DNA of 64,000 nucleotides from Psammoneis japonica (lineage: Eukaryota): positions 124,001 to 188,000 of the forward strand of contig QPGO01000078.1 of NCBI GenBank assembly GCA_008632985.1. The letters run 5' to 3'. The notes under the pieces are model-generated. The model saw only the letters and a list, made by a program, of their open reading frames with translations, ran no database searches and was not told where the DNA came from. Position numbers and translations under genes: made by a program. The first letter of the stretch is position 1. Every line of letters begins with the position of its first letter. Below, piece by piece: positions 11,291 through 64,000 of this stretch.

Positions 11291-11338
11291 AGTGCACAGT
11301 CACCCAGCCAGCGCAACAAGGGGAGGAGGAGCACACAG

Positions 11339-15689: not shown

Positions 15690-15793
15690 CGTCGTCGTCG
15701 GTTTATAGTTTATAGCGTATAACTGAGAACAACACCATGTATCGGTCGACGTACATACGACGACTACGCTCACATTTTGGTCCAAATCAATGA

Positions 15794-30973: not shown

Positions 30974-31046
30974 TAGTAAATTTACTCCCAAACACTTATT
31001 CATCTCTCTTGAGATATATCTACCGATCATATTGTCCTGACCAGAC

Positions 31047-35270: not shown

Positions 35271-35291
35271 CGTCTCAATTGGGGAAGCGAG

Positions 35292-40399: not shown

Positions 40400-42250
40400 A
40401 AACAAGCTTGAACACTGCCATCATTTGTGAACAAATGTGAGTCCCAACCAAGAGGATGACATTCCACATGCAGGCAGCCAATGGATTGCTTGTGTCCATG
40501 AGAGGCCACACAACATGGATGGCACGTGCCCTGCAATTGCTGCATCATGCACATGAGTCAGGGAGCTTGCCAACAAGAGTTGGGGAAAGGTGGCATTTCC
40601 AAGAGGATCACCATGTGGCACAAGAAGAGTTGACAGAGTGGGCACAGAGCGGGCAATGTTTTCAACTCAAGATCCACACCTTTGCCACAATTCAATGGAT
40701 GTGCATTTGTTGACAGAGAAGGTTGAAAGGAACAAAAAGCTTGCCAGCAGACAAAGCAAATTCAGGAGCACACGGCACAAGCCATGGATGAAGATGCACA
40801 ACCTGGTGCAAAAAGTGCAGTTAAAAGGACGCCATGGAGTGATGAAGTGTGTGAACACATGTCTGCTGCTGCCAATGTTCTCCCTCCATGATGATCTGAA
40901 CCTTTCATCTGAAATCAAATTGCGCGGTGCAGAGGCACACACAAACTCATGATGAACATGACAAAGGACATGTCACAGGATTGCAGGGCAATGATTTGCA
41001 GTTTGCCCTGGACAAGTGTGCTTTCAACAATTTGCAAAGGCTGTTGACAGTCAGTTGCCCCACCTGTGGCATGAATGCACTTGGGGGTTGTGGCTCCCTT
41101 GTGAACCTCAACACCACCCACTTCTCCAGAGGCAAAGCGCAAGTTGATGTGGGCTGGTGCAGAGCAACAACGGCATTGTTTGCAACACTGAGAAGTTGTC
41201 ATTGTTCTTCCACCATGACATTGATCATGCAAGCACCAAGAGTTGGTGTGCTTGTCACAGAATGGAGTTCTTTGAGTTGACTCTTAAGAAGATCAATGGC
41301 TGGATCAAGGACCAGATTGTTGGTGTTCACACAGCAAAGTTGTGTGAGAGAGGCCTCATTGCACTTGTGTGGAGTGCTTTGCAGAGCCTTTTCAATGCAT
41401 TGCATGCTTGTTCAACAACATGGTTGATTGCAGTGATGCAGGAAAGCACACAAATCTGCACACTTGTGATTTGTGGGATGTCAGCACCAAGGCACAACTG
41501 ATGCACCTGGCAACCACATTGTGGTTGATGCAGCACAAGGCCAGTTTCCTCTGGACATGGAGCATCATGGTGTCACATCCATTTGAGTGACAGGAGTGTG
41601 TTGCAACATCTTGATCATGAGAAATCACAGGGAACCCAGACAGATTGAAGGAAAGATGTTTGACTCTTGATGTGGATCATTTGGCAGCTCTTTACAAACA
41701 AGATTTCATCATCACCAATCTCTCTCACATCTTTCAGTTTATCTCACTCTTTGGAGTGAATCATTTTGTTTGCTTGAAGAAATGCACATTTGGCACCACA
41801 AGGCATCTGCTGTGTTGCAAGTTTGAAGTTTGCATTGACAACTTCCATGCAACCCATGGCCTCTACAATCAACCAAGGCAAGTCAAATGAGCAGCACAAG
41901 AAGCCCAGCAGGACTCCCTGTTTTAGTGACATTGACTTGCTGGTTCAACACCAGCTGGTTTTCCTGATTTTAGAATGGAGTGGAGCCTCAAAAGAGCAGA
42001 ACATTCAACACTTGGCTGTCCCCAAGCAGTGACACTGAGAGAAGTCAGAGAGCAGTCAGTCAGGTGACACTCCTGTGGTGGTTGGCCAAACCATGCAAGT
42101 TGGTGGTGCACAATGTGGTTTGTTGCAGAGCATCAACAGAGTGGCTCCACTCACTCCCTTTGAGCAGTCAGAGCCCACAAAACAATGCACTGGACAATGA
42201 TGGCAATGGCACACAGCATTTCAAGATCTGCCCCTTCTGACTGATCTAAC
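40400..42250 (+). mobile_element. Possible hAT-like transposase relic
   Basis: Faint motifs in the expected order: DHAS...CACH..FELTLKK (CxxH-like, ~41220-41295), DVSTKA (DVxTRW-like, ~41480) and RASTEWLHS (SxxxERxFS-like, ~42130). Confidence 0.3.
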
Positions 42251-43420
42251 CAACTGCATCTTTCAGATTTCACAGCAAAGAAAGATGGAGGCAAGTGCAG
42301 AGTGCTGAGACAGCTCTTTCATTGAGCCACAGAGCCAAAATGTCTGGCTCAAGGCAAGGTGGCCACAATGGTGGAGCACAAGAGTTTGTGTGACAATGAA
42401 AAAAAACAGCAACAGAAGACAGCTTTGCATGACGAACAGCAAAGGACATTTGTCCAAGGCAAAGAAGACAATCTTGCATGTGGACATTGTTTCTTGAACT
42501 CAGGAGGAGGCTTCCACAGAGCAGCAAGGTTGCCCATCTTCTTCTGGGTGCTCCTGATCATGCAGTTGAGTGGTGCACAATGTTGCATGCCAGTAATTGG
42601 AGCAGATTGTGAGAGAGCAGACTGGGCAATGACAGTGTTTTGTTTGCTTCTTCATGGAACAAAAGGCAGAAACAAGAAGCAAGCACTTGGCTCTGGATTG
42701 CAACATTTCATCACCAACAAGGCCTGTGTCAATGGCCATGAAATGGCTCTTGTTGAAGGAGACCACCAGCTGCTGATGGCCACTTCCATTTCTAAAGCCC
42801 ACAATGCCTTGACTGGAATGGCATTGATTGCAAAGCTGTTGTGTGCTGGCTGGAGCCAACAAGGGTGGCAAAGGTGAAAATGGGCCACAAAGGCAATTGA
42901 CCCAACTGACAATGAAAATGTCACAATTCTGGAGGCCACCCCTGATGAGCTGACAAAGGCTCTTCTTCATTGGAAAGCTTTGATTTTTGCAAAATGACAC
43001 AGCCACTTGTCAGCTGACTGTGATCTGCCACAGATCCCTCCCAATGTGACTGAGGTTCTTTGCTGCTTTTGCAGCAGTTTCTGTCAGAGAGAATGTGAGT
43101 CTGGCCCAATTTGTTCACTTTCTTGTCAGAGCCAAGACTTGTGGAAGACATGGCAAAGAAGCAGCTTGCTTGAGTGCAACCAAACAATGTGTTCAGAATG
43201 CCAGCACAAGGTCATGCAACATTGTCTGTTGATGCGACAGTGTCAGAAATGCAAACACTGTGCTTTTGTGATTTGAATGGCCTCTGGGGCATGCACTTGC
43301 ATGTGTGTTGTTCTCTGCATGAAAGTGGGTGTGAAGCCAGTGATGCACTGCACACAACAGCCAGAACAGCTGTGTTGTTGACCTTCTTCAGACAGAAACA
43401 ACATGGGGTCTGACAAGCCC

Positions 43421-43946
43421 GTGGTGTAGATTGGGTGTGCAACCCCATTTTTTGCAGTGTCAGTGTGCACACATGGCCATTTGCACATGCGGAACATGGG
43501 ACTGCACACAACTTTTTTGTGGTTTTTTGCACATTTTGGTCATGTTCACACAAGACACATGCAGGCTTGCTGCTTGCATGCTGAAATTGGCAAATTTCTC
43601 TCACATCTGACAATGTCCCATGCATGTGGGATTGTCCCCCCATTGTGTCACACATGACAGGAGATGGCAGCTCAAGTCCTGGATGTGGTGTGGATTGGGT
43701 GTGCAATCTCATTTTTTGCAGTGTCAGTGTGCACACATGGCCATTTGCACATGCGGAACATGGGACTGCGTGCAACTTTTTTGTGGTTTTTTGCACATTT
43801 TGGTCATGTTCACACAAGACACATGCAGACTTGCTGCTTGCATGCTGAAATTGGCAAATTTCTCTCACATCTGACAATGTCCCATGCACGTGGGGTTGTT
43901 CCCCCATTGTGTCACACATGACAGATGTTGTCTCAAGTCCTGGATG
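43421..43946. repeat. 264-bp tandem duplication
   Basis: gtggtgt(a/g)gattgggtgtgcaa... starts at 43421 and 43685; the copies differ at few sites. Confidence 0.92.
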
Positions 43947-43949
43947 ATG

Positions 43950-46900
43950 TGCGCATGGTTTTCAGTGCCTGTGGCATTGGACAACAAGCTCAGCACATTT
44001 GCAAAGTTTTGACAAAGGTTTTGTGACTCTTGCTCATGTCAGAGAGATGGAATCTGATGCTGATGTGACTGAGATGGTGAAGCGTTTGGCCTCTTGCACA
44101 TCTGCTGAAGGGCACAGAGCATGTGAGTTCAGGCACAGCTCAAATCAAATGCACTCAAGCTTCAGTGTGGTGGATGCATGACAGGCAAAGACATGGACAA
44201 GATTTGGATGCAACAGAAGCAACTCCAGAAGCTTTCAAATTGCAAGTCGCTCAAATGAAGATCATCAAAAAGAAGAGGTCTGATGTGGACACAAATGTGA
44301 GTTCTGGCACAAAGTTTGATCCATCAATTGTGTGACATGTGCAAGAGTGCTTTTTGAGTTTGCCATTGCAGAAGGCTGGGGCAATGAAAGTCCCACTGTG
44401 CCATGTTGCTCATGTGGAAGAAATGCCTGAGGAACCTGCAAATGATGAAGAGCATCACACATGGACCAATTGCTGTTTCAAGGCAATGAAAGTTGTGAGA
44501 ATGGCTGCCATGTTGGATGCCAAAGGAGCTCTTGGCCAGTGCACCAGTTGAACATGAATTTCACATTTGGGTGCATCAGAAAACAGATGTGCAGCATTTG
44601 GGGCACAAGCCAACCATTGCAATGGTCAAGGAGAGTCAAGTGAATGGACAGTTGCAGCCAAATGCATCATCAAAATGGTCCATTGTTGAAATGGGAGGGT
44701 TCCTTTTGAAGCTGTGGCTACAAAGTCAACAAAAGCTTTCACTGCTCTTGACAAGGATCTGGACTTGAAACCTTTCAAACATCAAAAGTTGGATGCATTG
44801 TCAAATTGCATCAATGCAACTGATGCTGAGTTGGTGGCCTCTGAAGCCATGATCAGCCAAACCCATCCAACAGATGTTTAGACAGCATGGAAGTGAGACA
44901 ACAACAGATGTGCAGCCATCATTGCTGGTTGTCACATCAAATTCACCACCCACTTCCAAGGAAACAGTTTGATCAAAACTGCTGCAGAACTTCATTTTGG
45001 AGTTCCTCAACAAAGCAACTTTCCTTTCAAATGGCTGTTTGGAATGTTCCTTGCAAAAGCCATGCAATTGTTGTCAGCTTCCATCTGTTTGGCATGTGCT
45101 TCAATGTGAGATGCAATGTGATCACTCCTTTCCAAGTCTGCAACACAACAAAGAACACTGGCCAGGGACAAAACACACAAGTGTTGTTGTTTCCTTGCAA
45201 GAACAATTTCACTGGCAAGCTGCTTGTCCACAACTCAATCTGCATTGGATGACAACATCTTTCCTTCTGGCAATGAGCAAAAACCATCCTCTGGCTTCCA
45301 ATCTTTCAATTCCTTCTAAACATCTGGATGTTGTGTCTTGAAATTGCACTCAGCCCAATCTTGGGTCAAACAGTTTTTGCAGTTTGCCTCAGAGTGCAAA
45401 CAACAAAAGGAGCAACCTTTTGCTGGTTGTGTGGAAGACTGGAAGCTCCTCCTTGCTCAGTCTCTTGAGATTTCACAAACTGTGTTGAACTGCAAATTGC
45501 GCCCATCTTCTGCTGAATCTCATCCCTTCCTTTTGAGTTGTTTTCTGCACTCTGTTGGGTTTGTGCCCAGCATCTGCAATGAGCTCAACACAACTCTTCA
45601 TGGGACAGCCCCTCATTTTGTTGGTGCTGCCAGCAAGCCCATCTCCACACTGCATGCAGCCAGAAACTTTGCTCAATCCAAGTGAATTTTGCAACCCTCA
45701 ACATCACTTGAGCATTGTTGTGCATTTGTTTGGCCATCTCCCTTTCTTTTTGGTGGTGCTCACCTTTGCTCAATGGAGCCAGAGCTGATGGTGCTCTTGG
45801 TCTTGGCTTTGAGGTGCAAAGGACACAAAGATCTTTGTCATTGCTTGCTCCAGTGACAGCTGTTGACATCTCCATCTGGCATTTGCAATGCGTGTCTCCC
45901 ACCCTCTCCCTTCTTTCTTTTTGTCTCCAAATTCTGAGTTTCCTCACTTGAAGCATCCAAGTCTCCCACCTGCTTCTTCTCTCAATTTCATGTCCCAGGT
46001 GACAATGCATCCTTCTGCAAAACAAATGCTGTTGCAGCCAGGGAGCCACCTTGCTTCAATCAACAATGCAAGCCATGAGGTTCCTGTTGCAATGCTTCCT
46101 CCAAACACTTGAGCAAATGTGCAGGCCAACAAGTTGGCGGGCTGCTTTCACAGTCAACACCCCTTTGACACTGCTCACATCACTCCATTCCCCAACTGTC
46201 AGGCCTGTCTCAATTTGTCTGATGGAGCTGTTGCCACCAGACTGAAAGCTGCAGTTTGCCATGTGTGGCTGCTGCCCCGGCGCTCAAGGAATGCATCTGC
46301 AAAAGGAACAAGTGGCATCCTCAGGTGTGGAGTCTGATTGTCAAACTGTTGCATGATTTGCTCCCTGCAAAACAAGATTGCTCATTTTCACAACCGAGTG
46401 CATCCTCATCATTGTCTTCAGTGTGAGCACCCAATGGAAGACAGGGATCATGTTCTTTGCTGCCCAGAGAATGAGGCTCAGTGTCTGAAATTTTTTTCTT
46501 GCAAAATTTGTGAAAGCATTGCAATCAAATTGACATGATGCCTCTGTCATGGGACTTTCTTCTGACTGCCCTGGAGGCATGGTTTTTGGATTAATGCTGC
46601 GTGAGTCTGATTTGACACTGATGCCAGTTCCGCTGTGGAGGGCCCAGTCAAACATTGGCTGGCAACAGCTCTTCAACAGTTGATTCTCCAAGTTGTGGAG
46701 TGTCTTTCAGGAGATTTGTTTGAGGGAGTTTAGATCACTGGATGAGCATCAAAAGGAGAACATGCTTCCTTCAGTCTGGGCAGCCCAAGTTGGGTCCTGC
46801 ATGTGGAGCAAGTGGTGGGAACTGCAGGAGGAGCACAACCAGATTGCACACAGCTGCAATGCGGATTCTCACAAATCATGTTGGTGTCAACTGAGGCAGA

Positions 46901-47100
46901 GCTGATGGCAATCTGCAACAAATGACAAGAGTGCTTGGCAGCACACAGAAATGTGCTTGGACCACAAGGAGCATGCCACATCTCAAATTCAGAATTGGAT
47001 CGCGATGGTGAAACCCATTTTTAGAAAGAGCTTGAAAGATGCAAAGAACCTGGTGCTTCAAGGGACTTGCACAATTCTCAGCCACTTTGGTGGGGACACT
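43950..47100 (+). mobile_element. Decayed non-LTR retrotransposon 3' region (RNase H-like and C-terminal Zn knuckle)
   Basis: CLQCEHPMEDRDHVLCCP (~46413-46466, CCHC), QSNIGWQQLF (~46645) and WSKWWELQEEHNQIAH (WxxRN-like, ~46803); weaker RNase H-like DADV and HGQD near 44055-44200. Confidence 0.55.
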
Positions 47101-48759
47101 GCCACACTTTGCAGCACACTGGAAGTGCAGGTTAGCTGGTGCAGGCACAGTTGACAAAGGAGCAACAGCACTCCAAACAAAGGACTTTCTTTTTTTTAAC
47201 AACAATGTGAGCCAGTGGCTCCTTGAAAAGTTCTTCTTCTTGTCATCTGAGAATTGTTGTTGTGACATTTCTTTGTTGTTTGTGATGGCTTCCACCAACT
47301 TGGAGCACCACGGTGGTGAAACAGACTTGTGCAAACAGTTGCACCTGATTCCAAAAATGGCCCTGTCATTCATGAGAACCTGCAGCACATGACAGCACGC
47401 CACCAACCAGTGACAACATCATGAAATGCCTCTGATGGTGAAACCTTTTCATGTTTGCATGGACCAAATGAAGAAACTTTTTGGCAACCTTGCTGCCAGA
47501 ACAACGCATCAGCACTCTGCATCCTGCATCAGTGGGAAGTTTGGGGATGCAAAGATTGTTCTCCATGTCATTGTCTGAATCATCAGGATCCTTCCTGTTC
47601 AGTTGCTTGTCATGAAAAAGACTGTCCTCATTGTTGTGCTGATCAGATTTCTTCAACTTGTCACATTGTTTGACAACTGGAGCATGGCCATGCTTCTTGT
47701 CCACCTGCTTCCTCTGACACCTTCTGATGCAATGGACCACTGGTTGTGTGTTTCACACCAATTCTCTCTTGATCGTCAAATGGGGGACTTTGTGTCACAT
47801 TCAAACTGGACATGCAATCCCTTTGAGAAACAAATTTTAAATTTGCTCATCTTTCCTGACAGGGACTTCACTCCACAACAACCACAAAACACAATCTTGC
47901 CAAAGGGCAGCCATGCAGTCTTTTGCACTTTTCTAAATTGCCAGCATTGACCTGGCTTCCTTCACTTGTCTTGCACTTGGCAGCACTAAAATGACTGTTG
48001 CCAACACAGCTTTTTGTTTTGTCAAGTGGTTCATCCCAAATGACATGGTGGTCATTGCTTGTCTCAGTGGTGCAGGTGGCACACTTTTGGCTGGAACAAG
48101 GCAATGCCAGAACAATTCTGGAGCTCATTGGAGCAACCAGCTTCTTTGCACATGGTGCAAGAGCATTGTCTTCTGCCAGTGCTTGTGTTGTCACAGCCCC
48201 ATTGCTCAGGGAGTCTTTCACACCTCTGTCATCATTGACCTTTGGCACTCTGTCATGTTGTGGCCTTGCACTGTGCCACAGAACTCTGTGCCAAGCTTTC
48301 CATTTTGACTCATTTGTTTTGTGAGCCTGTTGAGCGAGCCTCATTGTCTGTTCTCAAAACAACTTTTTTCTGGCTTTCCCACAAAGACTGCTGTGCTGCT
48401 TGTGGCAACAGGCATTGGGTGTTTCCCAGCAGATGACCAACAAGAGCCCAGACATGTGCAAGAAACATGCCAGGTTTCATGCAAGCAGCCACAAAAACAA
48501 ATGGCAAAGGCTGTTGCCATTGCCATTGCCATTGCTGTTGCTGTTGCTGTTGACAGAGCAATGGAGCTCAATGCTCTCTGCTGGCATCAACAGCACAGTG
48601 GGAAAAGGCAAATGTTGTTTGATTTGCTGTCTCCAGCAGAGGGGCCTCACTTGCTTTGTGTGCAGGCATTGCTCACAACCTGACAGAGGTCCTTGTGTCC
48701 ATGTGGGAATGGTGCGCTGTCACCTGGGCTCCTCTCCTTGGGTGCTGGGGTGCTTTTGG

Positions 48760-51700
48760 CTCAACAAGCACTGGGTGAAAAATTGGCCTGGCCGAGAGCC
48801 TGGAGTGGCCACCCGGCATTGCTGACAATCACAAATGACTTGTGGGAAAAAGAATTCTTGATCCAGTGTGGGCAATGACCACAAGGGAACTGCATGTCAG
48901 CACATTGCATTTGATCCAAACAAAGTGGCTTGTGACCACAGTCTTCAATTTGTCACAGTGAAAATTGTCCAGTTCAGCAACAATGCCAAATTCTGGTTGT
49001 CACATGAGCAAATGGCTGTGTGTGTGGGAAAGAACCCCAACAGCAGACACAAAATGCCGCTGCCACATCAGATTGCACAATCACACACAACAGTCATCTG
49101 GAAGCTTTCTAATGAGAAAATCTTTGAAGTGTCAATTGAAACGATTGTTGTGGTGATTCTGGTCATTTTGCAGATTGCTTTGACAAAAAACAGTCTCTCA
49201 TGGGATTCTACGATTCGCCACCTCCAGACATTCTCTCTTGGCACCCTGCCTGAAACAACCCTCACAAAATGAAAAACAAGAATTGAGGCTCTCTGGGGGC
49301 ACCATTGAGTTGCATCCACCAAAAGCTCACAAAACAGGATCAAGCCAAATCTCAAACAAGACAAAATGAAGATCATTTGCAAGGGTGTTTCTCTCCTTCT
49401 TGCTTTTGCTCCATGCAATTCTTCTGGCAAGTGGCGTTGCTGCATGGTTTGTGCTGGGACAACAGAGCCATTTTGACCAGACAAGAGAGGCTGACAAATT
49501 TGCACTGCACCCCCAAATCTTCTGTTCTTCCTCAGCCCTGACAACTGAGCCAGAAATCAACAATGGGAATTCTCAAAAGGTGAGCAACAAGACTGCACCC
49601 ATGCTGTTCATTTCCTTTTGTCAGTCGTTCTAACAACGTTTGCTTGTTTGGTGAATGCACCTCTGTTCTCACAGGATGTTGTCAACCCCAACACTGAAGC
49701 CAAGTCCAACAGGTTGCTTGCTGCAAGCAAATTGAGGGTTGCATGTTGCTCAAGTTGAGCCAACTTCTTCATCATTTTCTAAAACATCTGAGTTGCTCAA
49801 AATGTCTTTCAGTGTTGCTTTCCTGCCAAGGGGGCATGCTGTGAAACTGAGTGTGGTCAACCCAAATGTGCAGTCACACAGCAACACAATTGTCAAGGTC
49901 ACAGCAGCCACTGCATTGGAGATGGAAGCAGCTGCAGACCCAACCAGTGTGCAACCATCCCACATCCCATGCAACCAACTGTGCCCAGCCCCCCTGCACC
50001 AATGTTGGATGGAAAGGAGGGAGCATGCTGGTTGAGGTTTTGGCAGGTCTTGTCTTGGTGAGCAAGAACCACTTTCTCTCCCCATCTTTGACCTCAATGC
50101 TTTGCCACCTTGAATTGCACAAATTGCATTTTGCGTTTGCAGGGATTGATGCTTTGTTGTTTTGGAAGACATTTGCAGCAGGTTGAAGAATGGAATTTAC
50201 CATGGGGATGACATGGCTAGACTTGTTGCTGTTGTGAGAACAGAATGAATGTGCATCAACAGACATTGTGATGACCCACATTCTTCTTTCTTCTTGCTTT
50301 CAGACCTTCATTTCCAGTGGCTGCAGGACCAGGAGTGCATGTTGCTTGGGTTCTGGTGAATGCCTTCCCTTTGAAAAGAAAAGCACATGCCAAAGGGCAC
50401 TTGGTGACACATTCCAAGGCATCGGCACAACTTGTCAAGACAAAGGAGCGTGCCGTGTGACCCCTCCTTTTGGACCTGGTGCCTCTTCTTCTGGTCCTGG
50501 CACCCCTCCTTCTGGACCTGGTGCTCTGCCATCTGGTCCTGGTGCCTCTTCCTCTGGTTCTGGTCCTCCTCTTGGTCCTGGCACACCTCCGCCTGGACCT
50601 GGCGACCCTCCCACAGGTCCTGGTGCTCTGTTGTCAGGTCCTGTTGCTCTCCTTCTGGTCCTGGTGCTCCTCCTTCACCCACGCTGCCATCTCTGAAAGA
50701 GGGAGGTTGCTGCTTGCCCTTTGGAAACTGGAGCTGCAACGTTCTTTCCAACAAAGACTGCACTCATCAGAGTGGAGCACACCTTGGAGACAGCAAGACA
50801 TGTGCTGCTGCAAGATGCCCAAGGCAAGGAGCCTGTTGTTGTGACAATGGCACTTGTGGCAGGACAAAATTGTCTGGATGCAATGATGGAGTCTTTCAGG
50901 GTCACGGCAGCAAATGTGAAGATGGGAATGGCTCTGCCATTTGTCCAATGCTGGCTCCCACTCCATCTCCTGTGCCTGCTCCAGTCAAAGAGGGGGCTTG
51001 CTGCCTGCCTTTTGGCAATGAAAATTGCAATGTTCTCACCAAACAAGATTGCACTGGTCAGGATGGAGCACACCTTGGGGAGATGGCAAGACATGCACTG
51101 CCAGATGATGCCCAAGGCAAGGAGCCTGTTGTCACGACAATGGCTGTGGCCGGACCCCTTGTTTGGATGCAATGATGGAGTCTTTCAGGGGTTCAGCAGC
51201 AAATGCAAAGGAGAGAATGGTCTGACCATTTGCCCAACGCACTCTCCAACTCCGTCTCCTGCGCATGCTCCCATGGCTGCTCCTGCACCTGCCCCAACAG
51301 GAGCATGCTGCTTGCCCTTTGGGTGGAAAACATGCAAAGTTCTCTCCAGGGCAGACTGCGACACTGAAGGAGGAGTGTGCCAGGGAGACAATCAGGCACG
51401 CCAAAGGACATGTTGCCCAAGGCAAGGTGCTTGCTGCCTTGAAGATGGCAATTGCTTCTTGAGCCCCTTGGCTGGTTGCAACAATGGCAAAGTGTTTCAG
51501 GGCCGCGGCACTGAATGCCAAGACAGCACCGGTGCTCCAGTGTGTCCAGCGGCAGCCACACCTGAGGCATTTCTAACCCCAAGCCCAGTCAAGGAACCAT
51601 TTGGTGTGTGCTGTGACAACAAGTTCTTGAGGTGCACCAAGACCTTCAAGTCTGCATGCAATGGTGGTTTCTTTAGCAATGGAAGTCAATGTGTTAAACC

Positions 51701-52430
51701 CAATGGACAACCCGGGTTTCCTGCTGCCAGAGGTTGACCCCAAGTCCACCGGTTGTTGAAGTGGGCCGCTGCTGCCTTCCCAATGGCAATTGTGATGCAA
51801 CCACTCCTGCAAAATGCAATGATCAGTCCAGTGTGTGTCAGGGAGCCATCACCATGTGTGGTGGTGCCAATGATCACTGCAGCAAGAAAGGAAGTTGCTG
51901 TGTGGGTTTCAAACTGTTCTGCATTGACATCAACATTGCAGCTTGCAAAAAGAAGCAAGGCAACTTCCAGGAAGACACCGCATGCTTTGACACCCATTGG
52001 TGTCCAGGTGAGGCCTGGGCTTGGAGACGCCAAGTGATTGTGATCACAATTTGTGGTGCAAGTGCTTGTTTTGGCAAGGACATGCAAATCTCAATCCAGT
52101 GAATGCCACCATGATGCCTCTGTGTTGTTGCACCAGTCCAAGCCCCTCTGCAAGAAGAAGATGAAGCAAGTGGGGCTTGGGTCCAACTGCAAAAAAAAAA
52201 CAGTGTCCATGTTTTGTGAATGTTGTGCAAGCAGTGGGTGCACCACAGCTGTTTCATTCATTGCCTCAGTTTTTCATTGGCATGACTGCCTGACCTTTTT
52301 TCAGAGACCCCAGAACAATCCACTGTCACAACAACATGATGGAACATGATGACACCAATTCAATCAAGTCACCAGAGCCACCAAGTGTCTTTGAGTCACC
52401 ATGAATGGCCGGCAGCCACAGGGGTTGCAT
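48760..52430 (+). pseudogene. Decayed paralogue of the Cys-rich gene locus (~36245-39430), including upstream region and introns
   Basis: Colinear with the intact locus: ATGAAGATCATTTGCAAGGGTG at 49366, GACCLEDGNCFLSPLAGCNNGKVFQGRGTECQD retained, stop read through at 52016. It carries extra modules at ~50985-51240 and ~51590-51740. Confidence 0.93.
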
Positions 52431-52639
52431 CACAGATCACTCAAGATTGTTGTTTCTGGTGTCAAACTGGTGTCTGACAGTGCCATGGTGATTGATGTTT
52501 TGGTCGGATTCCATGTGTGGAGATTTTGCACTGTGCGCCCAAGTTTCTTGGTGGTGTTGTTTTCAAAAAGGCAACAGCTTGCTGTTTGCTGTGAAATCCT
52601 TGCAGATGTGCACACAGCCTCCACCTCCATGCTGCTTTT

Positions 52640-54110
52640 GGTGGAGCCAGCATGGCCCACAATCTTTGTGGACGAGGCTCAGCAGCTGCTGGAGAACCTC
52701 CCCTGTCACTTTCTAAATTGTGACAAACCACAGCTGCACTCAGCCTTCTCTGCATTGCTGAAATGTTTCCTTGAGATTGTCAAGACTCAAGATGCAAAAG
52801 GGTGCCCTGTGTTTTCCGGGACTGGTTTGTCCATTGACAAAACAAGGGGTGAATCTAGATTTGCCATGGCAAAACATTCTGCATCAATGCAGTCTGTGAT
52901 TGATCATTTTTTGTGAATTTTGAACAGTTTGGTGCCAGAGCCATCAAGAGCCATTTGAAATCATTTCTTGATTTAGAAGAGCTTGACGATGATGTCTTCA
53001 AACACATTGCCAGGTGGCTTTGTGGACATCCAAGACAGACTGCAAACTTCTTGGAAGTTCACTTGGCAAGAGGCTTGAAGGACTTTGATGGGACACAAAG
53101 CACCTTTGACAACTCAGAAGCCAAAATGGTGCAAGCTCTGGATTGACACCTCACAGCAATGATGACTGCCACCATGGTTGCTGGAAACCAAAGACACTCA
53201 TGGAGTGCTGGCCATGCTTCTGCCTGCTGTGGCATTGATCGAGTCATGACCATGAGCAACATGTGCCAGATGCAGCACTTGCTGGAAACAGCCATGTTCA
53301 TTTTCACTGATGGTGGGAAGACTTTGTTTCTTCAAGAAGAGCCCAAACAGTTGATTGAGGTTGGTGTTGCCGCACTTTCAATGTCAAGAAAGAGGGGAAA
53401 AACTTTGTCAGAGTGTTGAACAAGCCAATCACAGTCCAGGCTGGCATCAACCATTTCAGCTTAGAACACACCCTTCAGGGCCATGTGCTGGCACAGGAAG
53501 CTGGCATCTTTGCCTTTGAGAAAATGGTGCTGCCTGGCCTTCAGAAGAATTTAGAAGACCTCTTGAAAAGGCAGCTGGAGAATCAAAATGGATTCAGCAA
53601 GTTCTTCAGCTCTTCCCACTTGGTGTCTTCTCAATCATCACATGGTGTGCTTGCAATTGACTGCAAAAGTGACGTTGCTGGAACAATCAATTGGATCAAC
53701 TCTGCTGCTTCAGCCAGATTTGAAGGTCTGGCTCCACTGCTCTGCTGCTCGGATGACAATTTTGGACTGGACATGCTGTTCTGATGTGGAACAAGGAACA
53801 CACACCATTTGGTGCTGTCCTCACCCAGGCAAAGTTCAGCAAAAGATTCAATCATCTCAATGCTCTGGCACCAGTGTGAAAAGTGTGACAAACAGGTGAG
53901 GGATGATCTCTGGAACAAGTGGGAAGAAGCAAAGGCAAATCTGGTTCAAAATGGCAAACCCTGTCTTTGCCTTGTGGCTTGGCATCCAGCAAACATCACT
54001 GGGTTGGTGACTCTAGGATGCTTTCATGAAGATGACACATCTCCTTGTGGGGACATGGGTTGCAAGCAAGACCATGACTGGCTTGGAACGGTGAAAGGCA
54101 AAGATGAGCA
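52640..54110 (+). pseudogene. Decayed Crinkler-like P-loop NTPase + restriction-endonuclease-fold gene
   Basis: IFVDEAQQLL (Walker B-like), PVFSGTGLS, WLCGHPRQTANFLE (GRxR-like), LIEVGVAAL, FAFEK and DDNFGLDMLF (GPD-like), interrupted by stops and frameshifts. Confidence 0.5.
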
Positions 54111-57100
54111 ATGAAGTCTTTGTTGTGCAAAAACTGGAACACGATCAAATTTTTGGAGTCTTTGACTTCTTGAGCTGTCATGTCCCCAAAACTCCTCTTT
54201 TTGCCACCCAGCCAAGGGGTTGATTTTGCAAATGGTGGTCTGCAACCCCCATCAATGAGAGTTTTGAAGCTCTGCTGGTGTCTCTGTGGTTCAATCTTCC
54301 CACAACGCACACTCAGCATGGTGTGAGCCAGCTCCCAAACATGCAGACCCCTGATTGATTCAAGAGGATGCCCCCAAAACTGATCCAAGACAAAAAAACA
54401 AAGTAGAAGGTCACAAAGAAGATGATGATGCAATGATGCTTGTGGCCATGACCACCACTCCTCTCTCCATGTGGGCCAAAAGGTGGTCAAAGAACATCTC
54501 CCATGCCTGGACAATGTTCAAGTGATGGCAAAGAAGCACCTGACTGGAAAAGGAAGAGGAGTGGGGCCAGGCTTCTCATTGATGCCATTTGCCATGAATT
54601 CCATGACAGTGAGCCTGTCAAAAAATTGGAGGTGGCTGTGGGTTTGAGCTCATTTCAGACAATGTGATGCCCTTGCAGGCCACAGTGGCAGTGGTCAGAT
54701 CCTTTTGTTGGAAGACAGCACCAGGAGCTCAAAAAGCTTGAACATGGCAACTGCAAAGAGGCCAGCAACATCTGTTGTGTGCTTCTGCAAAAGCAGCTCA
54801 ATGGAGTTGTCATTTGACCCCACGGCAAGGAGCATCAGTGCACATTTGTCAGCTGCAAAGATGCAGAGATGCAAGACTCAGCAAACCCTCATGTCATGCC
54901 TGCACTTCACAATGACATCTTCCCCTCATCATCTCTCACACTGCACAAATGATGAGTGGAGTGCATGGCACTCACATGGCAAGCTTCTCTCAGCAAAAAT
55001 CCAAGCTCCAAGCATGATCCACTGGACTGCACCAGCAGGACTTAAAAGGCACTCTTGGAGTGTCTTGGAGTGCTGCTGTTCATCATGGAAGCACCGCAAT
55101 GGATCTGAACAGCTGCAAAGAGCACAAAGGTGATTGGAGGAGGTGCAGATTGTCAGTGGGAGGCATTGAGCCATCAGAGCCATCACCGGAGGAATTGGTC
55201 AACTGTGCAAGCTCCACTCCTGTGGCCCTCAAAGCATGAGAGTGCTCTTCTTCCTTCTCCTTGAGGAAGTGCTCTTCTTCCTCCTCCTTGAGGAAGAGGG
55301 CTCTTGCTCTTGCATTGACTCATCAAGGTGCAATCATTGGCATCATCATTTTGCAGCTCCTCCTCTGAAAGAGAGGCAGTGTTGCTGCTGTTGTCATCCT
55401 CCAGCTCCACAAGCTTGTCTGCTGTTTCTTGCTCTGCTTTCAAAATCATCTGCTGCCCCACCAACTCTCCATCCTTTGCAACAGACTTTGTTTCCATGGC
55501 AGCAGAAGTGCCTTTTTCTTCTTCTTCTTTCTCTTCCTCCTCCTCATTGGAGAGCTCCTCCTCCTCCTCCTCCTCCAGCAGCAAGTCTCTGCATGAAAAG
55601 ACTTCACACTCCACAAGACCATTGCACGCCCTGGACAACTGGGCACAAACCTCCTTGCACAGCAACCAGATCTCTGCACCCCCAACAAAGCAGATTCAAG
55701 GTCACACTTCCTCCTTAAAATGCTTTCTGGTGTCAGATTTTGACCAAATGTTGGTGGGCCATGCTGGGTCCTCACCACTTCCACTCAAACCGCAGGGCTG
55801 CAATCATTGCCTTGTTGCACAACAGGTGGCAAAGCAACAGCTTTGCGCACTTGCATGAGCACTGGTTTGCTCTTCATGCTGCTGCTGCTGCAAGTCTCTG
55901 CTGCTCAGCCATGGCTGATGCCACTTGCAAATGAAGAACAGCTGTGGGTGAATGTGAGAGCAAAACACAGATGCTCCAAAAGCACTTTGTCACAGCTGGC
56001 ACCCCAAAGCTCATCCAGCATGCATGCTTGGCTGCCTTTGTTTGGTGAGCACATGCTTCAACAAGGCTGGAATTGCACAGTCATCTTGTTGTTTGTGACC
56101 AGAGAGGGTGACAAGCCAAAGCAGCAGATGCCAAGCCAGCTTTGTGAATGATCTTCATGTGTGGGGAAACAAGGAGGGGTGGCACTGCCATGTGAAAAGA
56201 CACATTGTTGCATGCCGCTGCATTGCTGATCTGTCCCACCAGCAGGTTGAGAAAAAACTCAAAGAGGAGGAGGCACAATCTTTTTGCAAGCTTCTGAAAG
56301 AATTTTTGAAACACCTCAACCTTTTGTCAGCATGATCCAAGGAAGGAGATGTGAGTGGTGGCAGCCAAAATGCAGGTGGAGCAATGATGTGCTCAGCAGC
56401 TTGCTTGTCAGGAAGAAGTTGCTGCTGGGCTGCTGCACCAACAATTTGCAACATCTGGCAAAACATGCTGAAGCAGCCCACAGGTCAAAAGGCTGTTTGT
56501 TGGTGTCTCCAACAGGGAGAAAAATGTTGCAAAAAAGGTGCTGGAGCAGTGCATCAACAAACTGCAGCAAATTTGCCAGCAGCCCTTTGTGTGGCACATG
56601 GAGAGAGGCAATTGCTGTGACCACAGCGGGGCTGCCCAAATCTCTGCACAGCATGGCAAGAGCCACTTTGGAGCCTGAGACACTCTGCCCATGAGCAACT
56701 GCAAGCATTTTCTCCATGTTTCAAGTGTCACAAAAGCAAAAAAAGGAGAAAAAACAGCTGCCCATGCAACTGGTTGTTTGAGCACAATTCACAGAAGCCA
56801 AGAAAGATGGAGGTTGTTGCACTCACAACCTCAAAAAATTTGTGCATTCACAATGGCAGCATCAGCTGCTTTGATGTCATTCAAGATTTGACAAAAAATG
56901 TCATGAGCAAAAAAAAAGTGGGAGAAAAGCGCTTTGAAGCACAATTTGCAACTTCCATGCTGGGCACAACTGCAGCAATGAGACAGTGCCACAGAGCAGC
57001 AAGGTGGTGTTGAGCAAAAAGCTTGCAGGCTTGAGCATGAAATGAGAAAGAAAGGCTTTTGATCAAACACACCATGTCATGTCAAAAAATGAACTCACAA

Positions 57101-57779
57101 ACAAGGAAGAATGCCCCCAACCCAACTGGAGCTGCAGCACTGCAGAGACAGATGAGACACAGGAGCTCACAGCAAAAGCAGCACCAGGGGTGTGTGCAGA
57201 CAAAGCGGCTTGAGAGAGGCAGACAAGCTGATGCCAGCTGGCAAGTCATCATCAGTTTGTGTTGCATTTTTGAAAAGCAACCACATTTCTGCATTTAATT
57301 TCAAAAGTGCAGCTGGCACAGTTTGGGGCTTGAACCTTGAGACAACCTCTGACATGCTGCAAGGCACTGCTGGATGAACCAACCAGCCCACCACCAGGCT
57401 GCAGTGCCACCTCCTGGTGTGTCTTGTCAGCAACTCATTGTGGTTCTGTTCTGCCCACATTGGACGGTTCTCTTTTGTGCACACTTTTTGTGGCTCTTCT
57501 TTCTTCTGCAAGATGCATTGACATGCCATAGACATGTCACTTTGAAAGGGCCAGTCACATCAATTCCATGACACTGGGCACCCCCAATTTTGGAAATGAA
57601 AAATGGCACCAAACATTGAATGCACACCAGCACGCAGTTGTTGAAGCAATGTGCCAATGGCACTCACCACTTGCCACTCAACAAATTCTTCAAGATTGAC
57701 TGTGTGACAGTGTTTCTCTTTGCATTGATGGGACAATGTGTGCCCTTTTTTGCCCAATCTTCCCATGTTCCTGCCCAGC

Positions 57780-58930
57780 CCTGCTTGCCAAATTCACCAG
57801 GTCATGCAAGGAGACTCCTTGACATGGGGTGCCATTCATTTTCTTGAGTTGATGAGAGATGGCAATCCTGGTTTTGATTTCCATCTAAAAAGGGATGATG
57901 AAACTGGCTGGCCCAAGGCTTTGTTGCACATGTTGCTGGAGATGTGTCAAGACCTTCAGCAATGTGGTGATGTTGTTCACCTTCATGCACAGAAGCAGCA
58001 GCACAACAAAGCTGGTTGGCCCATTGTCAAGAATTCAGAGATGAAGACATGCACTGTCTCTGAGTGCATTTGCCTTGAGGAGGACTTCAAGCATTTTGTT
58101 CTTTGGTCTGTGGAGGAAATGATGGACAGAAAATGGTCAACCAAAGACATGTGCATTTTGTTGTCAACCAAATGCTGGCTGAAGGTTTTGTGCAGGGACT
58201 TGGGGATGACAGAAACATGCTGTTGCAGTGTGACTGTTGTCACACTTTCCTCAAAGTTTGGCCAAAGCCAGAAAACTTTGGTGTGTTTGTCCACTGCAAG
58301 AAGATCAAGGACCAGTTGCAGCAGATGCTTCTCTCAGATGCTGTCCAGCAATGGGATGAAGCATCCACTGAGACCAAAGAACACCTGGCGGATGATGCAC
58401 AGAAGCTTTGCCTTTTGTGTTTGAACTGTGACAATGCACAACATTGTGTGCCAGGATGCCACCTGTCAAGCAAGTTCCTGGCAACCTTTGCTTGAAAGGA
58501 TCCGCATCAACAGAACAAAACCATGCCAGCATCGCAGCTCACTTGGGGAAAGGAGCCCCATGGAGCATTGTGAAGTGCCTGAAAATGTTGTTGGAATGCC
58601 AAGCATCCATTGCAAAGAAGTGCTGCAAGGAGCAAAACAACCTGTTCATGAGGTCCTCTCAATGCTGCTCCACATCACAAAAGGGCACAGTTGCACATGA
58701 GACAGCAAAACAGTCTTTGTCATGCTCTGCATGCAAAGGTTTGTTTGCACCAGCATTCCATGCCAAGCACACTCTTCAAAATGTTTAAGATCTCAATGTG
58801 CATCAAGCAAGGCATGCATTGCAGCTGCAACCAATCTGCTGGGTTCTTGCATCAGTGCATGCACAAGGTGTCAGTTGATGGCCAAAAAATCATGATGGAC
58901 AAACACAGCCAGTGCTGGCTTTCAGAAAGA
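57780..58930 (+). mobile_element. Decayed MULE/Mutator transposase with SWIM finger
   Basis: FDFHLKRDDETGWPKALLHM..EMCQDLQQCGDVVHLHAQKQQHNKAGWP resembles the YGDxxxLDxxxxxxNxxxWP MULE core; CSCNQSAGFLHQCMH (~58820-58865) is SWIM-like. Confidence 0.6.
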
Positions 58931-59726
58931 GGGTCCAACTCCCAGGTTCCAGAAAATTTGTTCACAGCCAACAGACAAGTCCAGCCAGAGATGAACGCAG
59001 CAGCAGGTGTTGATGATGATGATGACTTGGATGATGAATGAAGCAACATTGTGCTTCATGATGTGAACCAGGCCATCAAAAGGTGTGATGGCTTGGACAG
59101 CAAAATGGCTGCTGAATCATCTGACATGGTCAACAATGATGCACAAGCTGCTGAATGAGTGGCACATGGTTGCATTGTTCTCAAGGGTCATCAACTGGCA
59201 GAGCATCCACAGAATGACATGGAACAGCTGTCAAACAATGTTGGGCCATGGACAAAAGAGCATGTCAAAGAATGCAACCTTTGAAGCCATGGTGCCAATG
59301 AGTCTGGTGCAGGTCAATCATGATCACCCTCTTTTGGGACAAAGCAAGAGTGGCAACATGGCAGCAAAACAAAGATGGCTCATGTCTTCCCAAGAGCATT
59401 GTCACACAGTGTCTGTGGGAACTTGAAAATGTTCAACAACTGTTGCTTGTCTTTCCTCCAATGATGAAGACATCATTGGTCTGCCCAGGAAACAAGGAAG
59501 TTGAAAGTGCTCCATGTGCAAAAAGATGGGTCATTTTCAAGACAACTGCCCACGTCTCCCCGCTTTCAGGAGACCAGCCACCCCTCAAGGCAAAAGATGC
59601 AAGGCAAAGGTCTGTGTTTTTCACTCAACTGCAAAACATGGGTGTGGTCCCAACCATGAGCAGGGGTGCTGATGATGATCATGTGGTTTCTGAAATGCAC
59701 CTCAACAAGATGAGTGGGGTTGTCAT

Positions 59727-59844
59727 TCACCACTTGCTCCATGTGGCAGACAATCACCATGAAAGTTGCCTCTGGAGTGTTCTTGTCACCACTTGCTCCA
59801 TGTGGCAGACAATCACCATGAAAGTTGCCTCTGGAGTGTTCTTG
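59727..59844. repeat. Perfect 59-bp tandem duplication
   Basis: tcaccacttgctccatgtggcagacaatcaccatgaaagttgcctctggagtgttcttg twice. Confidence 0.92.
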
Positions 59845-61399
59845 GCCAACCACCAAGATGGCAAACACAGACCCTGACTTTGAGAAAAAAAACTGTTTGC
59901 TGTTGGTGCAGCAACCATGTTTGTCAACAAATTGTCCACTGTCATGTGGTCTGTGAGATGGATGCTGGTGTGGTTGCATGTCTGGCAACATCTTCCCAGA
60001 TGTGCACATTGAGTGCAACAGCAAAAAGGAGGAACCAGCAAAAGCAGCAGCAGTGGTGGCAGCAGCAGTCTTTTCTCTGCCAGCTGTGCTGTTGCTGTCT
60101 TTGCAAACTGCTCCATGCAGAACAATGACAATTGCATCCAGTGGCAGGCAGTGACAGCAGAGCCCTCTGACCACCATCATCAAAGAGAAAGATCATTGTT
60201 GAGAAAGCAAAGCATCCTTCACTTGCCACCCAGCCAACTGTGCTTTTTGCACAGGGCCCAGCAAGCACAATGGCACTTTGTTTGTTTCATGGAACACAAA
60301 AGGGTGGCAACAAGAACAACCACTTGGCTCTGGATTGCATTGTTTTGTCACAAATGGCTGTTCCTGTCCAAACCCACCACCAGAGGCATCTTCAACATGT
60401 TTCTGTGCTGAACCAGAGCAATGCTTGCCAACAATTAAAAATTGCACACATTTGCCTCCTGATGTTTCTGCCGATCTTCATCATGCACAGACACTGACTC
60501 TCATCATGGACGGTTGTCAATTCATGTGTCATCCAACCAATTTTTCTCTTTTAAGTTGCATGTTGTGCTTTTGTGTGTGCATCATTAAACTTGTTAAGTT
60601 TGCATGCATTTCATCCCTTTTCCTTCCAATTGCAAGTTGTTTCCCTTCTGTTTTGCTCAGTTTCTGCCAGATCTGTCCTTTTTTCCCACACTGCACACAC
60701 CACAACACGCCTGCTGACCCAAAGTCTGCCAATGACAATGGCACACCCCTGTTGCAATCCACTCTCTCCTGGTTGGATGCTGGTTGGATGTCTGACAACA
60801 ATGACCAGCATGCTCTCCGCTGACATTTTCAAAGGTGTCCCCAGTGCTCTTCCTTTTTTTGTTGTGGCCTCAACAATGCATCTTCCTCTCCCAACCACTC
60901 TCTGAGTGACAATGATGGTGCCTCCATCTCTTTTGATGCATCAGTGCCTCCCAACCATTCTCTTGATTCAAGCACCAAAGGATTTTTGTTCCTGTCTCTT
61001 CATGATGGCAATCCATTGTCCCACCTTTTCTGGATGGCAGTGATCATGAGTTTCAACCATCCACCCACAGTGACCCCTCCTCCAATGAACCACCATTGGA
61101 TTTTTCCTTTGACAACATTGTTGTTGATTCTCATCCTGCGCCACTGCTGGAGGAACTTAGCGCTGGGTCTCTTGCCCCAGTCCCTTCTGATGATGGCATC
61201 TGCTGTGATGAAGTCCTTTTCCTTGAGGAGGAGTTTGACATGCTCTCAGCACAATGCTCTGTGTCATCCTCTTCCCTCCCCAACAATGACAATGACAATG
61301 AAGGATTGCGCCACATTGGCACACTTGATTTGGGGGAGATGGAAGAAGCTGTTGCAACCTCCTTGCATTTGTGACACCAATGCCACCAAGAAGCTTCAT

Positions 61400-63970
61400 C
61401 TGGTGGAGGAAGAGGTGGGTGTGATGATGAAGAAGCACCGCCTCTCCCATGGTTTGTACAAGGCTTTTCTTTCTTGGGCCAAATGTGCCAAGGAGAGTGA
61501 CTGTGAGCACAAGTCTCTCTCATGCTCTGCTGCCTTGCAATGCATGAAAGACAAGAGCATTTTGATTTTGTTGGCCCAGAGCCCATTTGCTCCACAGTGC
61601 AATTGGGCCCCGATTTCCCCCCATGCATGTGTGCCAATGCTCCTTTCTGCATCATGTGAGAAGGGTCTTTTGTGATCCCCAGGTTGTCCAGTCATGTCAG
61701 TGGATGTGCAATGAGAGTTGCTGCCCCAAAACAAATGAGTGCATTTGTGACTCTCTTGACACTGGTGACTGGTGGAAGCAAGCAGAGCATGATCTCAAAT
61801 CTTCCCTTGACAACTCGGCAATGGCTGCCCATCTGGGTCACACTTTGTTTGCCCAGTTGTGCTGTTTGACGATTCCACCTTTTGTGACAACACAGGGCAT
61901 TTGCAAGCACAATCTGTTCTTGTGACATTGGGCATTTTTAATGAGAGTTGTTGCAGCCACTCCCTTTGGTCAACACTTGGAATGCTTCCACGACACCCCA
62001 AGACAAGCAACAAGCACACCACTGACCATCAGCCCAAGCTTGGACAGGAGACACACATCAAGTTCCACCACAGCACTTTGTGCAAGACATTCGCTGAGTT
62101 GCTTCAACTGTCAAAGCAAAAGACCAGTTTTCTGTTTGTGGTGCCATCTCTTGGCATTTGTCATCTTCACTTTTGATTGTGCATGACAATCAGCAATGTG
62201 AAAGAACTCCCATTCCAGCAACATCTCCCAGATGAACAGGGACTGTGACTTGCCACAGCATTTTGGTGACAATCCCTTGTTTGCTTGCAATTTGGTGGAA
62301 CAAGAGAACATCAAGGCACAGTGGAGGCTGCCATGGTGGCCGTGGAGGAAAGGCATCATGGCAAGGTGACTGCAGCTTGCAAATGGTGCAAGGACATTTC
62401 TCAGCACTTGGCTCATCCTGTGTTTTGGGACATCCCTCATGGCAGAGGAAAGCACAGCATTTTTGGCATGCTCCCCTGGGAACTGTTGCATGCCTTGCAC
62501 TTGGGTCTTTGCAAGCACCTGCTTCATGGCTTCTTCAACCTGCGTCAAGTCCCAGAAAAAATGTTGTCATGGTGCCATGAACATCATGTGGCCGGGGACT
62601 GCACAATGGACAAATGACCATCCATCACATTCAAGGAGCTCCCCAAGCTGTTTGAAAAAGCTGAGTTTGAGAGATGCTTCAGGGTTGTCACAGATGCGTC
62701 CAGGAGACAAAGCCATTGGAAGATGCCAAGAACTCCATTTAAGACAGGAGTCACTGACCAGACTTGTCTTTCTGGCCAAGAGCATCCAGGTTTGTTGCTT
62801 GTGACACTTGCTGCAATGAAAGGCATGCTGTCAAAAGAAGACAACAGCCACAAGCCACTGGAGAGTCACTTTGCCCACCTCATGTTCATGTCTTTGGGAT
62901 TGGGTGCAACACTGTCCATGTCCTCCAACAAGGAAAGCTTTCTCACTTGGCTTCAGAAATGCCTTTTCAAGTGTCTCCAATTGTTTGAATTTGCAGTCAG
63001 CCTGTTCAGAGAGTGCCGCCCTTGCTCTGGACTTCACACATCCAAGTTCCACGGCCTTCTTCACTTTCTTTTTTATGTTTGTCAGTGCAGCAATGCCAGC
63101 AATTTTTTTGGTGGATTCTGTGAAGCTCTTCTCAAGATGCTGCTTTTGAAGCAACCTGCTAAAACCACAAGTCGTTGGCATGACAGGCTTGACCCAGATG
63201 TGACAAATTGCCACCATGAGGACCTTGTGGTCAGGGAATCAGAGAAGCATTTGCTGGAGGTGGGTTGGACCTGCAGCTGGATTCAAACTGCACAAATCTG
63301 TGTTGACAGCCACTTGTGCTGCAAAGGCAGGTCACACCAATGCCGCATGGTTTGTAAAATGTGGCAACAAACAGCTTGAGACACCGTCACATCCTTTTGT
63401 TCCTGGCCATTGTGGGAACAAGTGGGTGACCTCCTTGCCAGATCATGCTGATCAACATGAAGCTTTCCCTGTTGACATTGTCAATTTTCATTTTGGATGC
63501 AGTGCTCTGGGCCCAGCCAATGACAAATGACATTCTAGGATGCCACCCCAACTTTCACTCCTGTCCATGGGAATGCAGGAGTTGGCATGACTGGGCCATG
63601 ATGAACTGGGACAAGAATGAAACAAGCTGTTCTGCAGCAGCTTGTGTGTCGTTGTGGGCAACCTTTGAAAATGAAACAACAGAGTGCAGCAAATCCATGG
63701 TTTGTGCAATCCAATCACTTTGGAGCTTCACACCATCCAAAGATTTGCTGCTGACCTTTTTCATCATGGATGCAATGGAGTCAGAAATCAAAGTCAATGA
63801 TGCTTCTGACACATTGTCCGCTGTCTTTGGTCTTCCATTGATGAGGTCAGAACAAGACCCCTTTCCCAACAATTTAGAGGATGCTGCTCATTTTGTTGTT
63901 GTCCCACCAAGGATTGACTGGTGCAACATGACTTTGTCATCAATGGAGGAACATTTGGCCCCTCAAAATT
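61400..63970 (+). mobile_element. Decayed Plavaka-like transposase
   Basis: LDTGDWWKQAE, LFDDSTFCD..GHL...VTLGIFN...WSTLGMLP, GMLPWELLHALHLGL, KFHGLLHF..NFFGGFCE..KQPAKTT and HPNF...WHDWAMMNW in the expected order, with frameshifts. Confidence 0.6.
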
Positions 63971-64000
63971 AGGAGGATTGCTGGTGAAGCATTGACAATT

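Follow-up and report, generated by a model that had tools for sequence, protein, structure and literature searches.

Locus organisation and extent of the depleted domain

The window analysed here is a 64,000-nucleotide stretch of the genome of the diatom Psammoneis japonica (contig QPGO01000078.1, positions 124,001 to 188,000, forward strand), and its subject is a domain of old repeats in which the dinucleotides TpA and CpG have nearly disappeared. Positions 1-39400 hold ordinary genes (RNB/Dis3, SET and focadhesin-like; a structure/family atlas look-up assigned the SET domain to 22816-23706) and a young Ty3/Gypsy long terminal repeat (LTR) retrotransposon. For one of the proteins, every named homologue comes from a pennate diatom (47-61% identity). 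The depleted domain occupies the rest of the window (Table 1). An initial annotation had described the few TpA sites left in it as a signature of a mutator.

Table 1. Features of the window (dot, no strand given; o/e, observed/expected ratio; Y, pyrimidine; R, purine)
Feature	Positions	Strand	Remarks
Young Ty3/Gypsy LTR retrotransposon	30683..35583	+	Open reading frame (ORF) 31041-35270: reverse transcriptase, RNase H, integrase
Gypsy part nearly untouched by TpA mutation	34500..35500	+	In 11 of 19 copies, including ones 60-100% mutated just upstream
Lightly mutated paralog, in-window reference	36246..39464	+	TpA o/e ~0.4-0.45; ORF 37866-39065
TpA-/CpG-depleted domain of old repeats	39400..64000	.	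~26 kb in all, including ~2 kb beyond the window
Surviving TpA sites (58)	40800..64000	.	45 YTAR, 12 YTAY/RTAR, 1 RTAY
Degenerate dispersed repeat	40941..41950	.	68% to other TpA-depleted copies
Degenerate multi-copy repeat	44901..48171	.	Blocks 44901-46135 and 47198-48171; similarity to genomic copies
Hypermutated copy, member of a cysteine-rich-repeat multigene family	48768..52455	+	No Pfam match; not recognisably a transposon
Degenerate multi-copy repeat	60373..63984	.	69-85% to other copies, all with TpA o/e <=0.11

In every 2-kb bin from 40001 onward the o/e ratio is 0.01-0.06 for TpA and 0.04-0.18 for CpG; in the bins before, it is 0.33-0.73 and 0.45-1.41. CpA+TpG rises to 1.7-2.0 from ~39400 to the window end, with an excess of TT and AA steps. 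The depletion begins near 39400 and not at 40800, as the initial annotation had it (39397-41284 holds just two TAs), and tails off ~2 kb beyond the window end. Similar depleted patches lie elsewhere along the contig, many of them with TpA gone yet CpG largely retained. TpA loss is confined to repeated DNA, and the gene-bearing flank keeps the higher ratios just given.

Genome searches (91.4 Mb, 597 contigs) matched 7052 of the domain's 24,601 bases to other genomic loci that were fetched, in addition to the in-window paralog. All fetched copies of the 44901..48171 repeat have a TpA o/e of 0.01-0.11, some with CpG still at 0.5-0.76. No TA-rich relatives of the repeats inside the domain were found among the fetched loci, so the direction of change there cannot be polarised.

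Contigs of one public DNA run (X1), which may be the assembly's own sample, cover 30 of 30 bins of 40001-60000 and reproduce the depleted sequence, which excludes base-calling error or an assembly artefact. Between X1 and the window there are 86 differences in this interval (72 of them transitions) and several homopolymer indels, representing either a second allele or residual assembly errors. Among the 40 differences listed, seven gain or lose a TA, and five of these give a TA that the window lacks.

Surviving TpA sites

Sites with a pyrimidine before and a purine after the dinucleotide (YTAR) make up 78% of the 58 survivors: TTAA 16, TTAG 13, CTAA 12 and CTAG 4. The other 13 comprise seven YTAY, five RTAR and one RTAY, the GTAC at 61456; ATAT, ATAC and GTAT do not occur at all. 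The initial annotation had read this pattern correctly by eye: its seven example sites are all present within 1-2 bases of where it placed them, and the YTAR majority and the near absence of GTAC, ATAT, ATAC and GTAT are confirmed. Only its "overwhelmingly" is too strong, with 13 of 58 sites in other contexts.

The number of YTAR sites expected among 58 is 14.5 from base composition, 18.7 from a first-order Markov model (P 1.9e-12), 10.8 from the spectrum of window positions 1-39300 and 13.2 from the pool of NCAN and NTGN precursors; the 45 observed exceed all four nulls (P 2e-12 or less). Residual NTAN frequencies thus depart from local composition, a match to which was the outcome that the initial annotation had set against its claim. 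The YTAR share is alike in both halves of 40800-64000 (23/31 and 22/27), and survivors are enriched for T two bases before TA (54/90 strand contexts vs 167/494 in the flank). At other loci, YTAR accounts for 200 of 290 TAs in 113 deeply depleted 1-kb tiles, which are not independent of one another, and for 65 of 133 in 38 tiles chosen on TpA alone. Among the differences listed for 40001-53340, X1 loses two of eight non-YTAR sites vs none of 27 YTAR sites, a weak signal (P 0.047). The tetramer comparison suggested for NTAN and NCGN yields the YTAR excess for TA, but CpG survivors obey another, weaker pattern: YCGR accounts for 19 of 121, TCGA occurs once vs 7.8 expected, and CCGC and GCGG are common.

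Direction of change and the flanking rule

TA is palindromic, each strand offering one target A, and rules of the form RTA and TAY leave identical survivors. The survivors therefore cannot tell which flank counts, and the direction of change was read in partly mutated copies: at an RTAR site, an RTA rule yields TG, a TAY rule CA. In the hypermutated gene-family copy, compared with its lightly mutated paralog, RTAR became CA 18 times and TG four times, YTAY became TG 10 times and CA five times, and RTAY went nine times each way. With at least two family members agreeing on TA, the ratios are 11:4 (RTAR, CA:TG), 9:4 (YTAY, TG:CA) and 7:6 (RTAY).

Calibration drew on three families of LTR retrotransposons, with 73 partly mutated copies in all (19 Gypsy, 24 and 30 Copia). 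Sites with TA in at least two copies were taken (387 sites, 7998 site-copy observations) and rates obtained by a competing-risk fit. Copies share descent; confidence intervals come from a site bootstrap. Sites with TA in a single copy (21, 14 and 28 per family) were left out; some of the fastest sites are lost in this way, so that the context effect is if anything underestimated. Relative to A, the base after TA (+1) multiplies the rate by 3.55 for C (2.65-4.60), 2.90 for T (2.23-3.78) and 1.17 for G (0.87-1.58), an effect present in each of the three families and without TATA-adjacent sites. At +2 the factors are C 1.99, G 1.66 and T 1.41. Before TA (-2), C, G and T all stand at 0.64-0.67 relative to A; at -3, T is 0.48, C 0.64 and G 0.77. 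The strand factor is 1.09 (0.94-1.24), i.e. both strands are hit equally. Both TG and CA occur in different copies at 166 of 237 Gypsy sites, which indicates that copies were hit largely independently; pairs of Gypsy copies share the same allele at just 54-76% of doubly mutated sites.

The target is thus, with near certainty, T-A-pyrimidine on the mutated strand, within a fuller preferred word A-A-T-[A]-Y-S (S, C or G). Of the target first proposed, TA with a 5' purine or a 3' pyrimidine, the 3' pyrimidine stands, with a roughly threefold effect in three families. The 5' purine fails as a class: G does no better than C or T, and A alone is favoured (x1.5). Where it seems to act among the survivors, most of the signal is the 3'-pyrimidine preference of the other strand. 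A context-dependent TpA mutator, as the initial annotation supposed, is supported.

An A-to-G process acting on chromosomal repeats

A>G changes per copy-site number 0.213, 0.273 and 0.277 at TA in the three families, against 0.007, 0.005 and 0.013 at AA and 0.003-0.005 at GA; A>G is thus 21-53-fold commoner at TA than at AA. Private A>G changes at AA, CA and GA run at 0.001-0.002. The changes are nearly pure transitions: among 4015 changed TA states, 3902 (97%) have become TG or CA, leaving transversions below 3%. The small leak outside TA likewise favours a +1 pyrimidine (75/34,941 before a pyrimidine vs 33/46,396), with AAR at baseline and AAY about twice CAY or GAY on few leak events. Raised CA>CG and CA>TA in the Copia families most likely reflect sites where nearly all copies had lost TA; these columns were then masked.

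The two Gypsy LTRs of the window (30683-30973 and 35292-35583) are 98% alike and differ at two TA/TG sites and one CA/TG site. Since the LTRs of one insertion differ in this way, and since a copy from a gene family has been hit as well, it is chromosomal DNA that the process acts on, after insertion. The window's Gypsy element has already changed at 50 of 231 TA sites. In Gypsy copies carrying 0-9 private substitutions of other kinds per 1.3-3.4 kb, 7-77% of the TA sites are gone. TA load does not track this private-substitution clock in Gypsy (rho 0.10), but it does in the Copia families (0.41 and 0.50). Hits fall in kilobase tracts: neighbouring sites share their state at 0.687 vs 0.630 under the null, and one copy has 19 of its 20 hits inside 1 kb. 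Tracts mix both strands, and copies have no strand bias of their own. Beyond 15 bases no excess of strand-coordinated hits was found, though repeated rounds of mutation could weaken such a signal.

Loss of CpG in the same places is slower and a process of its own. C>T at CpG is 14-fold slower than A>G at TpA (0.015 vs 0.208) and 2.9-fold higher in TA-hit tiles (63/2111 vs 10/957); from copy to copy it correlates with TA load (rho 0.85, 0.46 and 0.56). Non-CpG C>T is near background; at CA, young Gypsy copies show 0.004, no different from CC and CT. The CpG loss is read here as probable decay of 5-methylcytosine; DNMT5-dependent methylation is described as silencing transposons in Phaeodactylum (PMC9998398).

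From measured rates to the surviving sites

Rates derived from Gypsy copies rank the window's ten strand-folded survivor classes with a Spearman coefficient of -0.92. At the best of eight doses tried (chosen for contexts), predicted TA retention is 0.072 vs 0.074 observed. In a wider-context model, 57 of the 58 survivors lie below the median rate of the flank, and T at -3 is partly predicted (0.49 predicted, 0.60 observed, 0.34 in the flank). The context rule explains most, not all, of the YTAR bias, and the size of the remainder is taken up below.

Candidate agents and rival explanations

The reading favoured here is that a host process turns A into G in genomic repeat DNA, almost solely where A follows T, about threefold faster when a pyrimidine follows the A and at half the rate when T lies three bases before it. 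YTAR, which is T-A-purine on both strands, would decay slowest, and RTAY, T-A-pyrimidine on both, would vanish first. The agent would be a DNA adenine deaminase of the TadA/ADAT2 type, converting A to hypoxanthine that is read as G; it may be recruited to silenced, probably CG-methylated repeat chromatin and act distributively over many cell generations, while CpG loss in the same domains would be ordinary 5-methylcytosine decay. As a whole (context-dependent A>G process, YTAR residue and deaminase agent), this is the best explanation, with a probability of roughly 55%; for the deaminase as agent, taken alone, the odds are about even. TadA-derived editors are reported to be most efficient at TAY (PMC10879117), and TadA contacts the +1 base (PMC3239186).

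The genome holds candidate genes for several mechanisms, and their presence decides nothing. Profile matches include an ADAT2-like, a TadA-like and two Tad1-like genes, the deaminase matches numbering nine for PF00383, five for PF14437 and four for PF02137. PF02137 (A_deamin, Tad1/ADAR-type) falls at two separate loci (L213-L216; G000 C40 and C79). One open frame (L045:313-1785, minus strand) joins a deaminase-fold domain to a 2OG-Fe(II) dioxygenase and probably serves nucleobase metabolism. The Y-family polymerase genes are L146 (G000:C22:251128-254793), L147 and L149; the Pol iota-like one matches Pol iota at E 2e-26 vs 2e-14 for kappa. The other two are Pol eta-like; all three are named by best PDB match rather than by a tree.

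Several observations weigh against the favoured reading. On the side of the survivors, a tetramer model predicts 38 of 58 YTAR sites vs 45 observed (P 0.034), and the wider-context model 59% vs 78%. A pure equilibrium of gain and loss (new TA from CA/TG divided by rate) was tried and rejected, as it predicts just 26.5 of 58; the survivors would therefore be mostly old sites, though with some turnover. The shortfall likely comes from an ascertainment that excludes the fastest sites and from a gene-bearing flank that is a poor proxy for the ancestral repeats. On the side of the enzyme, engineered editors are far less TA-exclusive than the diatom process. The motifs promoted in the editor study include CAT, GAC and GAT, none of them beginning with A. 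The deaminase matches resemble housekeeping genes, close homologues of the TadA-like one occur in other diatoms, and no fusion of a PF00383, PF14437 or PF02137 deaminase to a chromatin domain was found in the frames examined, the PF02137 loci being untranslated and APOBEC-like, DYW and Bd3614 families lying outside the search. The three Pol eta- and Pol iota-like genes count here as well, as do two features of the hits: the leak is higher at AAY (35/10,820) than at CAY and GAY together (40/24,121; P 0.006), which is WA-like (W, A or T), and neighbouring hits less than about 15 bases apart share a strand slightly more often (0.588 vs 0.559, z 2.8).

A Y-family polymerase, Pol eta-like paralog or Pol iota-like, that fills short repair gaps in repeat chromatin and places G opposite template T at TpA is the rival that survives best, though it is unlikely. 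Pol iota prefers G opposite T and is distributive. Pol eta is reported to turn WA into WG by inserting dGTP opposite T (PMC11507097), with ATA/TAT a named hotspot context (10.1101/783118). The genes are present, TAT is among the fastest diatom contexts, the leak peaks at AAY, and CpG is lost where TA is hit, an association that T:G mismatch repair would predict. Yet the defining WA motif fails, as AA is nearly spared, and the TA-vs-AA comparison and the purity of transitions are what discriminate between the mechanisms. The missing strand coordination beyond 15 bases, the lack of per-copy strand bias, TACG sites no hotter than other TACN (0.39 vs 0.34-0.36) and the 14-fold gap to CpG loss likewise argue against a polymerase. 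The tetranucleotide bias itself, which the initial annotation hoped would separate polymerase error from deamination, does not do so: TAY is the best context of TadA editors, as the proposed comparison of spectra confirms, but TAT is also a Pol eta hotspot.

Alternatively, a TpA-specific adenine modification in repeats might deaminate or mispair, A>G arising as a side effect of a silencing mark, just as 5-methylcytosine gives rise to CpG decay. Strict dinucleotide specificity on a palindrome, action on both strands, bounded domains and co-located CpG loss do resemble such a writer-plus-decay system, but eukaryotic N6-methyladenine is written at ApT whereas TAC sites are mutated no less often than TAT, the rate exceeds background by a factor of hundreds, and we know of no TpA-specific adenine mark; the idea is improbable. 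Far less probable still is A-to-I editing of retrotransposon RNA or cDNA by an ADAR/Tad1-like enzyme, fixed at reinsertion: two PF02137 loci exist and the calibrating families are retrotransposons, but the equal targeting of both strands, where a one-strand bias would be expected, largely refutes it, the LTR pair of one insertion differs at TA/TG sites, a fully mutated gene-family copy is not recognisably a retroelement, and ADAR prefers a 3' G, a slow context in the diatom. Composition, codon selection or assembly error is scarcely credible as the source of the YTAR excess. The over-represented TT and AA speak for it in that they lift the expectation to 32%, but 45 of 58 sites stand against 18.7 expected, the excess recurs in the depleted tiles elsewhere, coding DNA under-uses YTAR (27 of 237 Gypsy sites) and X1 reproduces the depletion.

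Other mutated families and neighbouring features

The untouched part of the Gypsy element begins at a sharp border near 34500 that copies share; either a chromatin border set in cis or recombination between copies may account for it. One Copia family of 11 copies (L058-L075) is barely touched (TpA o/e 0.50-0.68) and is probably a very recent burst.

The protein family of the paralog (ORF 37866-39065), with cysteine-rich repeats and Pro/Ser/Gly linkers, is large (155 genome matches) and without a Pfam hit; an atlas look-up of the protein gave just leads below 0.8. Its copies (G000 C12, C136, C193, C404 and others) range from TpA o/e 0.76 down to 0.04, so host-like multigene families are mutated too. 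C5 DNA methyltransferase genes (L208-L210; G000 C301 and C297) lie in TpA-depleted DNA (o/e 0.07-0.10), some with stops, and are perhaps element-borne methylases that have themselves been mutated.

Among the genes of the window, short patches partly depleted in TpA and CpG occur at 2001-4230 and 10259-12339. The segment 10707-12203 contains degenerate copies of 15733-16181, and 3505-3729/4006-4230 form a 97% direct repeat. A gene at 18728-21196 (minus strand) carries a long acidic tandem repeat with a unit of ~38 residues.

Relation to known systems and biological significance

The closest known case is TpA hypermutation of integrated viral DNA in Bigelowiella natans, for which ADAT2 is proposed, not shown, as the agent (Mettrop et al., bioRxiv 10.64898/2026.01.13.699255). 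As its main text describes it, A:T changes to G:C there almost solely at TpA, with TpG or CpA as the product on either strand, in foreign or repeated DNA; every such feature examined in the diatom is found there too (A>G/T>C almost exclusively, restriction to TpA, both strands, confinement to repeats). The host differs, a diatom being on another branch of its supergroup than a chlorarachniophyte, and so do the targets: LTR retrotransposons, other repeats and a gene-family copy. Unlike what is described for B. natans, the diatom process is near completion and goes together with CpG loss. The B. natans figures are a per-generation rate of about 1000-fold, on in only some lines; the diatom figures are relative loads only. 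The preprint's main text contains none of the words context, trinucleotide, CpG, diatom and polymerase; the flanking rule and the TA-vs-AA contrast are measured here.

Like repeat-induced point mutation (RIP) of ascomycetes, the diatom process is a dinucleotide-specific transition hypermutation of repeats on both strands that kills transposons. It runs in the opposite direction: RIP is described as C>T preferentially at CpA (PMC2621366) and creates TpA, which the diatom process destroys, leaving CpA at background. RIP also requires the RID methyltransferase and a sexual cycle; in the diatom genome a profile search gives 27 C5-methylase matches of any type. With TadA-derived adenine base editors (ABEs) and the tRNA A34 deaminases TadA and ADAT2-ADAT3 it shares A>G change and, for ABEs, the best context TAY; those enzymes are engineered or act on tRNA, and the diatom process is far more exclusive to TA, with a leak that favours AAY. 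Pol eta in somatic hypermutation likewise gives A>G with TA, including TAT, as a hotspot, but in mammals it is defined by WA, and neither the sparing of AA nor the rarity of transversions fits.

In the literature searched, with subscription journals mostly outside it, no relevant earlier report on diatoms or centromeres was found, the B. natans preprint being the one relevant work. The process is thus of a recently described kind, to which, set against that preprint's main text alone, the diatom flanking rule adds. New here are the directional proof, the extended motif, the TA-vs-AA test, the tract structure and the rate gap to CpG loss.

The flanking rule makes the question of which enzyme is at work testable, through TA exclusivity, the threefold effect of a +1 pyrimidine, the halving by T at -3 and strand symmetry, and diatoms are genetically tractable. 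Transposon dating and annotation in diatoms are distorted by the bias as well: copies with almost no background divergence appear 5% diverged. More tentatively, and with the balance tilting slightly against it, diatoms may carry a natural adenine base editor, a deaminase of the TadA/ADAT clade steered to silenced repeats, which would erase TpA at the word A-A-T-[A]-Y-S as a defence opposite to RIP, would be shared with rhizarian algae and might be old among the eukaryotes of the stramenopile-alveolate-Rhizaria group. A natural DNA adenine deaminase, if true, would matter both for the evolution of genome defence and for the design of base editors.

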